From Escherichia coli (lineage in GTDB: Bacteria; Pseudomonadota; Gammaproteobacteria; Enterobacterales; Enterobacteriaceae): DNA of 64,000 nucleotides. Shown here piece after piece: positions 30,621 to 52,843 of this stretch. The DNA is taken from assembly GCF_044647545.1 (NCBI RefSeq), contig NZ_CP172818.1, one strand, 5' to 3'. Every line of letters begins with the position of its first letter. Position 1 is the stretch's first letter. The notes under the pieces are model-generated. The model worked only from the letters and a program-made list of their open reading frames with translations. It ran no database searches and had not been told where the DNA came from. The position numbers were made by a program, and so were the translations under genes.

Positions 30621-33600
30621 TTAACCGATCGTCATTAAACTAGCGTTACCGCCAGCGGCAGCGGTATTCACACTCAGCGAACGTTCGATATACAGCCGTT
30701 CCAGCAGGATATTGCTTTCGCCACGGGCAAAACCCTGCACCGAAACAATTGCGCCATCCCGCGCGGCAACGGCTTCACACAATGCGCGAAGCTGATCCGA
30801 ATCACCGTGGAAGATCACCGCATCAAAGGGTTGAGCGGTTATATTTTCCGCTTTCGCCAGTTGAATACGTTCGCTGACTGCGGATGGCAATGCCTTCACT
30901 AACTGATGATGCAGCGTGTCATCCGGCCACAGTACCTGGCTGCCCACCGCCAGCACGGCGGCGAGCTGAGTCAGCGCATCCTGTTCATCATCCGCGATAC
31001 ACAATACGCGCTCACGCGGCAGCAGCGTCCAGGTGTTGCGTTCACCCGTCGGCCCTGGCAGCAATCGTTGTGTTCCTGCCTGCGCCAGCTCGCCATATTG
31101 CGTACATAACGCCTGCAATTCTGGACGATTTGCTGCCCATTCCCGCAGTGCATTTAGCGGCTGAGTCAATGCGGCTTTCAACTGCGCATCGACCGGATAC
31201 TCTGCATCCTGACGCGCGAGCGTCACCGCCAGCGCACTTTCCGGGCGATTCGCCAGCAGACGGTAGAGATAGAGTGGACCGCCTGCTTTCGGCCCGGTGC
31301 CAGACAACCCTTCGCCGCCGAACGGCTGCACCCCAACCACTGCGCCCACCATATTACGGTTAACATACAGGTTACCAACATGCGCCGAGCCAGTGACCTG
31401 GGCGATGGTTTCATCAATGCGCGTATGGACGCCAAGCGTCAGACCATAACCGGAAGCGTTAATCTGCTCGATCAGCGCCGGCAGCTGGTTACGGTTATAA
31501 CGCACCACATGCAGCACCGGACCAAAGACCTCTTTTTGCAATTCGGCAAAATCATCCAGTTCGATCAGCGTCGGAGCGACAAAGGTGCCGCTTTGCCATT
31601 CACGGGTATCTTCGCTGTTTTCCCGCACCGCCTGGAACACCTGACGGCCTTTACTACGCATGGTCTGAATATGACGCTCGATATTGGCTTTCGCTTCGCT
31701 ATCAATCACCGGACCGATATCGGTGGTCAGGCGACCCGGATTACCCATCCGGCATTCGGCCATTGCGCCGCGCAGCATTTTCAGCGTGTGGTCGGCAATC
31801 TCATCTTGCAGGCACAGCACGCGCAGTGCCGAACAACGCTGACCTGCACTGTCGAACGCCGAGGCCAGCACATCTATTACGACTTGTTCGGTCAGTGCTG
31901 AAGAATCGACAATCATCGCGTTCATGCCGCCGGTTTCAGCGATGAGCGGAATAGGGCGACCCTGAGCGTCCAGGCGGCTGGCGATATTGCGCTGCAGTAA
32001 CGTAGCGACTTCGGTTGAACCGGTAAACATCACCCCGCGCACGCGATCATCACCCGTCAGCTGCGCGCCCACGGTTTCACCCCGACCGGGCAGCAATTGC
32101 ACCACGCCTGGCGGTACACCCGCTTCCAGCAAAATGGCGATCCCTTGCGCGGCAATCAGCGGCGTTTGTTCTGCCGGTTTTGCCAGCACGCTGTTACCTG
32201 CCGCCAGTGCGGCAGCGATCTGTCCGGTGAAAATCGCCAGCGGGAAGTTCCACGGACTGATACATACCACAGGCCCTAATGGACGGTGGGTTTCGTTAGC
32301 GAAATCATCCCGCACCTGTCCGGCATAGTAGTGGAGAAAATCGACCGCTTCGCGCACTTCGGCAATGGCGTTACTGAAGGTTTTTCCGGCTTCACGCACC
32401 AGAATACCAATCAGTTGCTGCATCTGGCTTTCCATTAGCACGGCAGCGCGATGCAAAATTGCCGCGCGTTCAGCCGGAGGAGTGGCAAACCAGATTGGCG
32501 CGTTATTAACCGCACTTTCCAGCGCCTGTTCTACTTCACGCGGCGTGGCTTCACGCACATAGCCCACAATATCTTTCGGTTCCGCAGGGTTAATAACGGG
32601 CGACATCTCACCTGCCGCTACCGGTTGTTCCAGCATTGGCAAGGACTGCCATTTTTGCAGTGCACTATTGAGCAGGGCTGAAGAGAGCGAGGCCAGACGG
32701 TGTTCGTTAGCGAGATCCAGCCCTGCCGAGTTGTCGCGCCCGTGACCGTAAAGATCGCGCGGCAGGGGAATTTTCGGATGCGGTAATCCAGTTTGCCCTT
32801 CCTGTTGCGCCAGTTTTTCTACAGCAGTGACTGGATCGGCGACCAGTTCATCCAGTGGCAAAGAGGTGTCGGCAATACGGTTAACAAACGAGGTGTTAGC
32901 ACCGTTTTCCAGCAGGCGGCGCACCAGATACGCCAGCAGCGTTTCATGTGTACCGACCGGAGCATAAATACGACACGGACGGTTAAGTTTGCCGTCGGCA
33001 ACTTTCCCGGTGACCTGCTCATACAGTGGTTCGCCCATACCATGCAGGCACTGGAACTCGTACTGACCCGGGTAGTAGTTTTGACCCGCCAGTTGATAAA
33101 TTGCCGCCAGCGTATGGGCGTTGTGCGTCGCGAACTGCGGGTAGATTAAATTCGGCACCGCCAGCAGTTTTTTCGCACAGGCAAGATAAGAAACGTCGGT
33201 ATACACCTTGCGGGTATAAACCGGATAACCTTCAAGGCCGTCCATCTGTGCACGCTTGATTTCACTATCCCAGTACGCGCCTTTCACCAGGCGAATCATC
33301 AGACGGCGACGGCTGCGGGTGGCGAGATCAATCAGGTAATCGATCACCAACGGGCAGCGTTTTTGATAAGCCTGAATAACAAAACCGATGCCGTTCCAGC
33401 CTGCCAGTTCCGGCTCGAAACAGAGTTTTTCCAGCAGATCGAGGGAGATCTCCAGACGATCGGCCTCTTCGGCATCGATGTTAATACCAATATCGTACTG
33501 ACGCGCCAGCAGGGTGAGTGATTTCAGACGTGGGTAAAGCTCTTCCATTACCCGGTCATACTGGGCGCGGCTGTAACGCGGATGCAGCGCCGACAGCTTG

Positions 33601-34583
33601 ATTGAAATGCCCGGACCTTCATAGATGCCACGACCATTGGACGCTTTACCAATGGCGTGAATCGCCTGCTGATAGGAAACCATATACGCTTGTGCATCTG
33701 CGGCAGTCAGTGCGGCTTCGCCCAGCATATCGTAAGAGTAACGGAAACCTTTCTCTTCCAGTTTGCGGGCATTGGCTAACGCTTCCGCGATGGTTTCGCC
33801 CGTGACGAACTGCTCGCCCATCAGGCGCATCGCCATATCCACACCTTTGCGGATCAGCGGTTCACCGCTCTTACCGATAATGCGGTTCAGCGAGCGGGAG
33901 AGGCTGGCTTCGTTATGGGTGGAAACCAGTTTGCCGGTAAACAGCAGCCCCCAGGTGGCGGCATTAACAAACAAAGACGGGCTACGACCAATGTGTGACT
34001 GCCAGTTACCGTTGCTGATTTTGTCGCGAATTAACGCGTCCCGGGTGGCTTTGTCGGGAATACGCAACAACGCTTCTGCCAGACACATCAGCGCCACGCC
34101 TTCCTGCGATGACAGCGAAAACTCCTGCAATAACCCCTGGACCATACCTGCGCGACCACTGGCATTTTTTTGATTACGCAGTTTATCGGCCAGTTGATAC
34201 GCCAGTTTATGCGCCTGTTCAGCAACTGGTTGCGGCAGGCGGGCTTGTTCCAGCAGCATCGAAACCGCTTCGGTTTCCGGGCGGCGATAGGCCGCGGTGA
34301 TCGCGGCGCGGGAAACCGACTGGGGCAAAATTTGCTCGGCAAAGTCGAGGAAAGGCTGGTGTGGTTCCTCTGCCGGAGTCGGTGCTTCATCGCTCTCATT
34401 GGCCGCGCCAGAAAGCAGCGCAGGTAGCTCCGGAAGAGTATCGCTGTTTTCCAGTTGTTCAAGATAAGAAAAAATCGCCTGCTTAATTAACCAGTGTGGC
34501 GTGCGATCGATACGTGTCGCGGCAGACTTAATACGCTCACGCGTCGCGTCGTCCAGCTTAACCCCCATGGTGGTGGTTCCCAT
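30621..34583 (-). CDS. putA: Bifunctional proline dehydrogenase / P5C dehydrogenase and repressor PutA
   Basis: 1320 aa from MGTTTMGVKLDDATRERIKSAATRIDRTPHWLIKQAIFSYL (ribbon-helix-helix N-terminus). Confidence 0.93.
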   Translation of the reverse strand: MGTTTMGVKLDDATRERIKSAATRIDRTPHWLIKQAIFSYLEQLENSDTLPELPALLSGAANESDEAPTPAEEPHQPFLDFAEQILPQSVSRAAITAAYRRPETEAVSMLLEQARLPQPVAEQAHKLAYQLADKLRNQKNASGRAGMVQGLLQEFSLSSQEGVALMCLAEALLRIPDKATRDALIRDKISNGNWQSHIGRSPSLFVNAATWGLLFTGKLVSTHNEASLSRSLNRIIGKSGEPLIRKGVDMAMRLMGEQFVTGETIAEALANARKLEEKGFRYSYDMLGEAALTAADAQAYMVSYQQAIHAIGKASNGRGIYEGPGISIKLSALHPRYSRAQYDRVMEELYPRLKSLTLLARQYDIGINIDAEEADRLEISLDLLEKLCFEPELAGWNGIGFVIQAYQKRCPLVIDYLIDLATRSRRRLMIRLVKGAYWDSEIKRAQMDGLEGYPVYTRKVYTDVSYLACAKKLLAVPNLIYPQFATHNAHTLAAIYQLAGQNYYPGQYEFQCLHGMGEPLYEQVTGKVADGKLNRPCRIYAPVGTHETLLAYLVRRLLENGANTSFVNRIADTSLPLDELVADPVTAVEKLAQQEGQTGLPHPKIPLPRDLYGHGRDNSAGLDLANEHRLASLSSALLNSALQKWQSLPMLEQPVAAGEMSPVINPAEPKDIVGYVREATPREVEQALESAVNNAPIWFATPPAERAAILHRAAVLMESQMQQLIGILVREAGKTFSNAIAEVREAVDFLHYYAGQVRDDFANETHRPLGPVVCISPWNFPLAIFTGQIAAALAAGNSVLAKPAEQTPLIAAQGIAILLEAGVPPGVVQLLPGRGETVGAQLTGDDRVRGVMFTGSTEVATLLQRNIASRLDAQGRPIPLIAETGGMNAMIVDSSALTEQVVIDVLASAFDSAGQRCSALRVLCLQDEIADHTLKMLRGAMAECRMGNPGRLTTDIGPVIDSEAKANIERHIQTMRSKGRQVFQAVRENSEDTREWQSGTFVAPTLIELDDFAELQKEVFGPVLHVVRYNRNQLPALIEQINASGYGLTLGVHTRIDETIAQVTGSAHVGNLYVNRNMVGAVVGVQPFGGEGLSGTGPKAGGPLYLYRLLANRPESALAVTLARQDAEYPVDAQLKAALTQPLNALREWAANRPELQALCTQYGELAQAGTQRLLPGPTGERNTWTLLPRERVLCIADDEQDALTQLAAVLAVGSQVLWPDDTLHHQLVKALPSAVSERIQLAKAENITAQPFDAVIFHGDSDQLRALCEAVAARDGAIVSVQGFARGESNILLERLYIERSLSVNTAAAGGNASLMTIG

Positions 34584-35005
34584 GCCATTACTCCTGTTGT
34601 TCTGAAAGGTGCAACTTAACGTTATCGTGAAATATCCATGATGTTGCAACTTTGTGCAACCATGTTAAATGTGACCTGCGTAGCAAGCTTAAAAATGAAT
34701 GAAATGTTAATAAAAGAAATCGATATGACAGGGATTAAAAAAATAACTCAGACTTTTTCTCTGCGGCAGTTAACATTTTTGAAAGGTGCAACCGCAAAAA
34801 ATGTGAGAGAGTGCAACCTGATGAAAAATAGTGTCGCTGAGCACTAAAATTTAATGTAAATGGTGTGTTAAATCGATTGTGAATAACCAGCGCTTCCGGC
34901 AGGATACGGTCGCCCTGGTAAAACATAAACTCTGTTACCCCGTTCCGGTGGCAGATATAACGGCAAGTTTCGACATTGCCGATAATAATTTTTTGGAGAC
35001 TTTAG
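34584..35005. promoter_or_regulatory. put control region with multiple GTTGCA PutA operator motifs and divergent putA/putP promoters
   Basis: At least five GTTGCA/TGCAAC hexamers (for example atgttgcaactttgtgcaacc near 34640-34660, ggtgcaacc near 34785, gagtgcaacc near 34810). Confidence 0.8.
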
Positions 35006-36514
<1,509 letters not shown>

Positions 36515-51695: not shown

Positions 51696-52250
51696 ATGAA
51701 CGAGTTTTCTATCCTCTGTCGTGTGCTGGGTTCGCTCTATTACCGCCAACCACAAGATCCTTTACTGGTGCCGCTGTTTACCCTGATTCGTGAGGGGAAA
51801 CTGGCTGCGAACTGGCCACTGGAGCAGGATGAGTTGCTGACACGTTTGCAGAAAAGCTGTGATATGACGCAAGTCTCTGCCGATTACAATGCGTTGTTTA
51901 TCGGCGATGAATGTGCTGTGCCGCCATATCGTAGCGCATGGGTTGAGGGCGCGACGGAAGCGGAAGTGCGCGCTTTTCTTTCCGAACGGGGGATGCCATT
52001 AGCGGATACGCCAGCCGATCACATCGGCACATTGCTGCTCGCGGCTTCCTGGCTGGAAGATCAGTCAACGGAAGATGAGAGCGAAGCACTGGAAACACTG
52101 TTCAGTGAGTATCTGTTACCCTGGTGTGGTGCGTTCCTTGGTAAAGTGGAGGCCCATGCAACTACGCCTTTTTGGCGCACCATGGCACCGCTAACCCGCG
52201 ATGCTATTAGTGCAATGTGGGACGAGCTGGAAGAAGATTTTGAAGAGTAA
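51696..52250 (+). CDS. ycdY: TorD-family chaperone YcdY
   Basis: 184-aa ORF. Confidence 0.88.
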   Translation: MNEFSILCRVLGSLYYRQPQDPLLVPLFTLIREGKLAANWPLEQDELLTRLQKSCDMTQVSADYNALFIGDECAVPPYRSAWVEGATEAEVRAFLSERGMPLADTPADHIGTLLLAASWLEDQSTEDESEALETLFSEYLLPWCGAFLGKVEAHATTPFWRTMAPLTRDAISAMWDELEEDFEE

Positions 52251-52351
52251 ATGTGATCTGCATCACTCATAACTGCAACAGATAATTTGTTGTTGCATAA
52301 AATGTGTGCTCGATCTCATTCATGGCCGCGTTTTCTGATATCATGCGCGGC

Positions 52352-52843
52352 ATGAACATACTTCTCTCTATTGCAATCACAACAGGTATTCTCTCCGGTA
52401 TCTGGGGATGGGTGGCTGTTTCCCTGGGCTTACTAAGCTGGGCGGGCTTCCTGGGCTGTACGGCCTACTTTGCCTGCCCGCAAGGTGGGCTGAAAGGGCT
52501 GGCGATCTCCGCTGCAACCCTGCTTAGTGGCGTGGTGTGGGCGATGGTCATTATTTACGGTAGTGCACTGGCACCACATCTGGAAATTCTCGGTTATGTC
52601 ATAACCGGTATTGTCGCGTTTCTGATGTGTATTCAGGCGAAACAGCTGCTGCTTTCATTTGTTCCGGGGACGTTTATAGGCGCATGCGCGACGTTTGCCG
52701 GGCAGGGTGACTGGAAACTGGTGTTACCTTCGCTGGCGCTTGGGCTGATATTTGGTTACGCAATGAAAAACAGCGGCCTGTGGCTGGCGGCGCGTAGTGC
52801 AAAGACGGCGCACCGTGAGCAGGAAATCAAAAATAAAGCGTGA
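52352..52843 (+). CDS. ycdZ: Inner membrane protein YcdZ
   Basis: 163 aa from MNILLSIAITTGILSG...; hydrophobic. Confidence 0.85.
   Translation: MNILLSIAITTGILSGIWGWVAVSLGLLSWAGFLGCTAYFACPQGGLKGLAISAATLLSGVVWAMVIIYGSALAPHLEILGYVITGIVAFLMCIQAKQLLLSFVPGTFIGACATFAGQGDWKLVLPSLALGLIFGYAMKNSGLWLAARSAKTAHREQEIKNKA

Follow-up and report, generated by a model that had tools for sequence, protein, structure and literature searches.

The 422-bp stretch at positions 34584–35005 of the 64,000-nt segment of DNA analyzed here (hereafter, the window) is the put control region of Escherichia coli, a feature already known in this exact DNA, and the five GTTGCA-containing places within it are almost certainly operators for PutA. 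An earlier note, made from the sequence alone, had claimed that at least five GTTGCA/TGCAAC hexamers lie between divergent putA and putP and that these are consistent with autorepression by PutA through its ribbon-helix-helix (RHH) domain. Our analysis confirms that the repeated GTTGCA motifs are real and that they were already known. PutA/put is a textbook example in which one protein serves as both enzyme and repressor and is regulated by its cellular location, and its operators have reportedly been mapped and crystallized for this very DNA. The sequence-only reading was accurate in its coordinates, motif count, and interpretation. The check is useful as a calibration, and the feature matters little as a discovery. 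What is slightly new is a conserved core of four sites, for which the comparison provides an independent phylogenetic footprint, together with a fifth site that varies among lineages; of the species sampled, only E. coli has the putA-proximal site.

The window originates from E. coli, and its spacer is 100% identical to those of many E. coli genomes, those of the O157:H7 type among them. When compared to K-12 MG1655 (NC_000913.3, 1078883–1079304), 420 of 422 bases are identical, with the two substitutions (34603 and 34676) both falling outside of the motifs. These identities therefore indicate that the noted feature is none other than the put control region of E. coli. The interval corresponds exactly to the putA-putP intergenic spacer, bounded by the ATG of putA, which ends at 34583, and that of putP, which begins at 35006, and its G+C content is 38.6% compared to 50.2% for the window. 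On one side is putA (30621–34583, minus strand), which encodes a trifunctional (type C) PutA of 1320 amino acids comprising an RHH repressor, a proline dehydrogenase, and a P5C dehydrogenase; its product matched NCBIfam NF008772 (trifunctional regulator/PRODH/P5CDH) over its full length with 2658 bits, above the equivalog cut-off. On the other side is putP (35006–36514, plus strand), which encodes a sodium/proline symporter of 502 amino acids that matched NCBIfam NF011948 with 1143 bits, also above the equivalog cut-off. The two genes are thus transcribed divergently from either side of the spacer, and both their identity and their divergence are as the earlier note had them.

An exact scan of both strands of 34584–35005 recovered six GTTGCA/TGCAAC matches, which fall at five places. 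At each of these, GTTGCA can be read in the direction of putA (minus strand), with the matches at 34643 (plus strand) and 34645 (minus strand) overlapping as an 8-bp palindrome, GTTGCAAC, that contributes one match per strand. The rest of the window contains 47 matches in 63.6 kb, or 0.31 expected per 422 bp, and the Poisson probability of the spacer containing at least six matches is 1e-6 (2e-5 for at least five), which is beyond what is expected by chance. First-order Markov simulations of the AT-rich spacer reached five matches in one of 20,000 trials, and none of 3,000 trials in a separate simulation run reached the observed count. Across the whole window, GTTGCA is not over-represented (53 found versus 55 expected from shuffles), and the excess is therefore local to the spacer. 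The maximum among other 422-bp stretches of the window was four matches, with stretches containing five presumably being offsets that overlap the spacer. Since the hexamer occurs 47 times elsewhere at a chance level, it is not specific on its own, and further discrimination must come from flanking bases or from clustering. The 8-mer GGTTGCAC, an extended consensus of the sites, occurs five times in the window, and three of these copies are inside the spacer.

A second cluster of four GTTGCA matches was identified within 357 bp at 52157–52513, within and between an open reading frame (ORF) encoding a DmsD/TorD-like chaperone, which we take to be YcdY, and a following ORF without a family match, presumably YcdZ. 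This cluster was rejected as a set of PutA-type sites and was judged to be due to chance, with none of its hexamers occurring in the GGTTGCAC context.

The hexamers were then compared across Enterobacterales using one genome per species and the first 140 residues of PutA as the query, which yielded 80 loci from as many species of Escherichia, Citrobacter, Salmonella, Kluyvera, Enterobacter, Leclercia, Kosakonia, Pantoea, Serratia, Yersinia, and other genera. In all 80 loci, putP was divergent from and upstream of putA. The density of hexamers was 11.5 per kb in the spacers of these loci (406 in 35.4 kb) and 0.51 per kb in flanking coding DNA from the same loci (199 in 390 kb), such that GTTGCA is enriched 22-fold in spacers relative to their own flanking genes. 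In an unbiased count, GTTGCA was the only 6-mer with at least three copies in all 78 non-E. coli spacers.

Sixty spacers of similar length (median of 63% identity to the window) were aligned, and conservation was calculated as the fraction that keep the window base. Four of the five sites are kept at 98–100% in these orthologous spacers (34643–34650, 1.00; 34655–34660, 1.00; 34787–34792, 0.98; 34812–34817, 0.99), whereas the remaining spacer columns average 0.63. The block TGTTGCAACTTTGTGCAACC at the palindromic site is invariant, and the preferred extended form across the aligned spacers is GGTTGCAC. By this comparison, no other element of the spacer is as conserved or as often repeated as the hexamers.

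The protein encoded by putA has the N-terminal RHH domain. Residues 11–43 matched Pfam PF21775 (‘PutA, RHH domain’) with 76 bits, and the other Pfam domains detected (PF14850, PF01619, and PF00171) correspond to the proline dehydrogenase and aldehyde dehydrogenase portions. The N-terminus (residues 1–52 to 1–80) is identical to PDB chains 4o8a, 2gpe, 2rbf, and 2ay0, with residues 1–52 corresponding to 2gpe, 2rbf, and 2ay0. At low proline, trifunctional PutA is bound to operator sites in the putA-putP spacer and represses the two genes (PMC5879082), and at high proline it relocates to the membrane (PMC5879082, PMC5293562). In a genomic SELEX screen of the whole K-12 genome, the putA/putP spacer was the only PutA target (PMC8249747). 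The RHH domain (residues 1–52) is sufficient to confer binding to 420-bp put control DNA, for which the Kd is approximately 45–58 nM, and reduction of the flavin lowers DNA affinity only about twofold, such that induction is mainly through relocation of the repressor (PMC5293562). Each site is reported to be taken by a single PutA dimer rather than by a dimer of dimers (PMC2777438). Collectively, the PF21775 match, the PDB-identical N-terminus, the published binding data (PMC5879082, PMC8249747, PMC5293562), and the 80-species comparison support the autorepression through the RHH domain that the earlier note had proposed.

The individual sites are arranged in two groups. The site nearest to putA (34610–34615, minus strand; aaGTTGCAcc) is approximately 32 bp before the putA ATG and would lie at about +10 to +15 of the predicted putA transcript. 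The palindromic site GTTGCAAC (34643–34650) comprises two overlapping hexamers that are considered one putative binding place, and the site at 34655–34660 (minus strand; gGTTGCAc) is 10 bp, or one helical turn, from it. All three are within 77 bp of the putA ATG. The other two, at 34787–34792 (minus strand; gcgGTTGCAccttt) and 34812–34817 (minus strand; agGTTGCAct), are 25 bp apart and form a putP-side pair in the middle of the spacer. In 2008, Zhou et al. (J Mol Biol 381:174) reportedly mapped five PutA operators, each with GTTGCA, of which three are said to be important for repression of putA and two for repression of putP; the structure of PutA52 in complex with operator 2 was reportedly solved in the same study. 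The layout of the five places described here, three plus two, fits that account. The 21 bp at 34778–34798 would match the operator-2 oligonucleotide that was reportedly crystallized with PutA52 (PDB 2RBF), and the 34610 site would be operator 5 in the numbering of that study.

Several of these sites coincide with a predicted promoter of putA. A relaxed consensus scan combined with conservation points to a minus-strand promoter at 34631–34659, with a −35 element of TTGCAC (34659–34654), a 17-nt spacer, and a −10 element of GATATT (34636–34631), that would start transcription near 34624. The −35 and −10 hexamers have conservation values of 1.00 and 0.97, respectively. A standard promoter scan identified two promoter-like sites versus 1.6 in shuffled sequences, and the putA promoter was not listed by this stricter scan; the promoter positions given here are consensus-level guesses. 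With these positions, the palindromic site falls within the spacer of the predicted promoter, and the 34655 site coincides with its −35 element.

The putP side of the spacer contains a block of direct repeats for ArcA at the putP P1 promoter (34855–34883, plus strand), identified from the sequence and a published footprint. It comprises TGTAAA (34855), TGTTAA (34866; 11 bp on), and TGTGAA (34878; 12 bp on), and it is conserved in the aligned spacers. In the putP P1 footprint, the third repeat (DR3), at 12-bp spacing, was unprotected, and the block in the window agrees with that description (PMC3798270). The ArcA repeats are a separate regulatory input within the put spacer. TGTTAA itself occurs four times in the spacer, at 34664, 34705, 34770 (reverse strand), and 34866, and is the second most widely repeated 6-mer, with at least three copies in 71 of the 78 non-E. 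coli spacers. They may represent additional half-sites for ArcA or elements resembling a −10 hexamer.

Given such elements, it might be argued that the hexamers are conserved because they belong to promoters or are bound by factors other than PutA (the −35 element TTGCAC, ArcA, or CRP), rather than for the binding of PutA. The coincidence of the 34655 site with a plausible putA −35 hexamer and the presence of further conserved elements in the spacer, namely the ArcA repeats at 34855–34883 and the four conserved TGTTAA copies, would be in keeping with this explanation. However, the hexamer recurs four to five times per spacer in 80 species, and these positions cannot all be −35 elements. Moreover, overlap with a promoter is expected of a repressor operator, such that the promoter and operator readings are compatible, and in published binding data the spacer is a target of PutA (PMC8249747, PMC5879082, PMC5293562). 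We therefore consider it very improbable that the hexamers are conserved for reasons other than PutA binding.

An explanation that fares slightly worse still, and to which we give very little credence, is that the hexamers are operators for CytR, which acts together with CRP and binds pairs of GTTGCATT octamers that are either direct or inverted. In RegulonDB, the model of the CytR site is a pair of GTTGCATT octamers, which have a GTTGCA core in common with the put sites (PMC3013702), and a CRP-like sequence, TGTGACCTGCGTAGCA, is present in the spacer at 34670. However, a full GTTGCATT is not present at any of the five sites, the contexts of which are GTTGCAcc, GTTGCAac, GTTGCAca, GTTGCAcc, and GTTGCAct. 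Rather, the conserved extension of the sites is GGTTGCAC. The only close pair of hexamers (34645 and 34655) is without the 2-bp gap that CytR prefers (as defined in PMC3013702), and both the TT extension and the paired-octamer geometry are missing at all five sites. Selection of the spacer by PutA itself in genomic SELEX (PMC8249747) also argues against CytR.

The CRP-like sequence TGTGACCTGCGTAGCA that starts at 34670 matches at 8 of 10 positions and has a conservation value of 0.86. The 34655 and 34787 sites are each followed by AAATGTGA at an equal distance, in the form GTGCAACC-N6-AAATGTGA (34654–34674 and 34786–34806; 76% identity over 21 nt). It is possible that CRP half-sites are paired with PutA sites in the spacer.

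Two small ORFs have been annotated within the spacer. The first is ymdG (34821–34847, plus strand), an 8-codon ORF (MKNSVAEH; K-12 annotation b4737) located between the 34812 site, which it directly follows, and putP. The initial report described a tagged protein of 40 amino acids at K-12 positions 1079024–1079146, equivalent to 34725–34847 of the window (PMC6001520), and ymdG has been named among candidate uORFs for putP, with RNA 3′ ends located upstream of that gene (PMC7815308). An intact ymdG was present in none of the 60 other species in the spacer alignment, and it is thus not conserved outside Escherichia. Translation of ymdG implies putP transcripts that start upstream of 34821, and the 34787/34812 pair would then lie at or just downstream of a putative putP promoter upstream of ymdG. 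The second ORF, at 34638–34847 on the plus strand, is annotated by RefSeq (PGAP) in O157:H7 and other strains as a ‘hypothetical protein’ of 69 amino acids (WP_000979516.1), and it covers four of the five sites. This ORF was intact in none of the 60 other species and had no family match, and for these reasons it looks like a spurious gene call. A permissive Rfam scan of 34400–35200 detected no RNA family.

The weakest explanation, namely that the cluster reflects chance in a low-complexity, AT-rich spacer (38.6% G+C) or coding constraint from the 69-amino acid O157 RefSeq ORF that overlaps four of the five sites or from the earlier 40-amino acid YmdG, has a negligible probability and was excluded by the Poisson and simulation statistics (1e-6; one of 20,000; none of 3,000) and by the 98–100% conservation of the hexamers in the same 60 species in which the 69-amino acid ORF is broken and without a family.

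The reading that the five places are PutA operators leads to the following model of regulation. The two N-terminal RHH domains of a PutA dimer form a single DNA-reading β-sheet. According to work published by others, when proline is scarce, oxidized PutA is cytoplasmic, occupies these sites, and represses both divergent genes; when proline reduces the flavin of PutA, the protein moves to the membrane as an enzyme and leaves the sites vacant. The putA-side cluster (34643–34660 together with the E. coli-specific 34610 site) appears to extend over the spacer and −35 element of the predicted putA promoter and over the early part of its transcript, and bound PutA would therefore probably exclude or block RNA polymerase. 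The 34787 and 34812 pair, in turn, may act on putP transcription that starts upstream of ymdG. The route of putP repression is not settled by the sequence, as the putP-side pair is approximately 100 bp upstream of the ArcA-footprinted putP P1 region.

The closest known system is the put control region of E. coli K-12, which has the same locus, divergent putA/putP layout, five GTTGCA places in a three plus two arrangement, and identical RHH domain, and which differs from the window spacer only at 34603 and 34676, whereas O157:H7-type genomes match the window spacer fully. The put control region of Salmonella enterica was described by Hahn et al., 1988 (cited in PMC5879082), and PutA was described as a redox-dependent repressor by Ostrovsky de Spicer and Maloy, 1993 (cited in PMC5293562). 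In the S. enterica subsp. arizonae locus of our dataset (L009), the four core sites are at equivalent distances from putA (68−/70+, 80+, 210+, and 235+). However, the Salmonella put region is without an exact 34610-type site and instead has an extra, oppositely oriented hexamer approximately 105 bp from putA. Among other RHH repressors, Arc, MetJ, CopG, and NikR resemble PutA in that a β-sheet reads a short pseudo-palindromic core at multiple sites per control region. Unlike these repressors, PutA reportedly binds as a single dimer per site (PMC2777438), is fused to two enzymes, and is induced through relocation to the membrane with only a twofold loss of DNA affinity (PMC5293562).

The number of sites varies among Enterobacterales. 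Spacers contained four distinct sites in 51 species, five in 15, three in 11, six in two, and two in one. The core of four sites comprises the GTTGCAAC palindrome, the site 10 bp from it, and, approximately 130 bp further on, the 25-bp-spaced pair, the spacing of which is retained in most species. In contrast, the conservation of the 34610 site is 0.20 among the 60 aligned species, and of the 80 loci, L004 and L005, both from E. coli, were the only ones with the exact site. Conservation outside E. coli thus gives the 34610 site no support. In E. albertii, Salmonella, and Kluyvera, an extra site is located approximately 101–105 bp from the putA ATG on the opposite strand, whereas in Pluralibacter an extra site is located approximately 42 bp from putA. 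We tentatively raise the possibility, which we consider somewhat doubtful, that the operator set is not fixed and that an ancestral Enterobacterales core of four sites has gained a fifth site at positions and orientations that differ among lineages. If this is true, a lineage-variable fifth site could tune the tightness of putA autoregulation in each species.

An extended repeat, TT(C/T)TGAAAGGTGCAAC, is shared by 34600–34615 and 34777–34792 at 15 of 16 positions. This suggests that the E. coli-specific 34610 site may have arisen as a copy of the conserved 34787 operator or by convergence on it. Within E. coli, a search with 34584–35005 recovered the spacer from 5420 of 5426 complete genomes; seven of the 5428 put-spacer matches are on records labeled as plasmids, and a few genomes have two copies.
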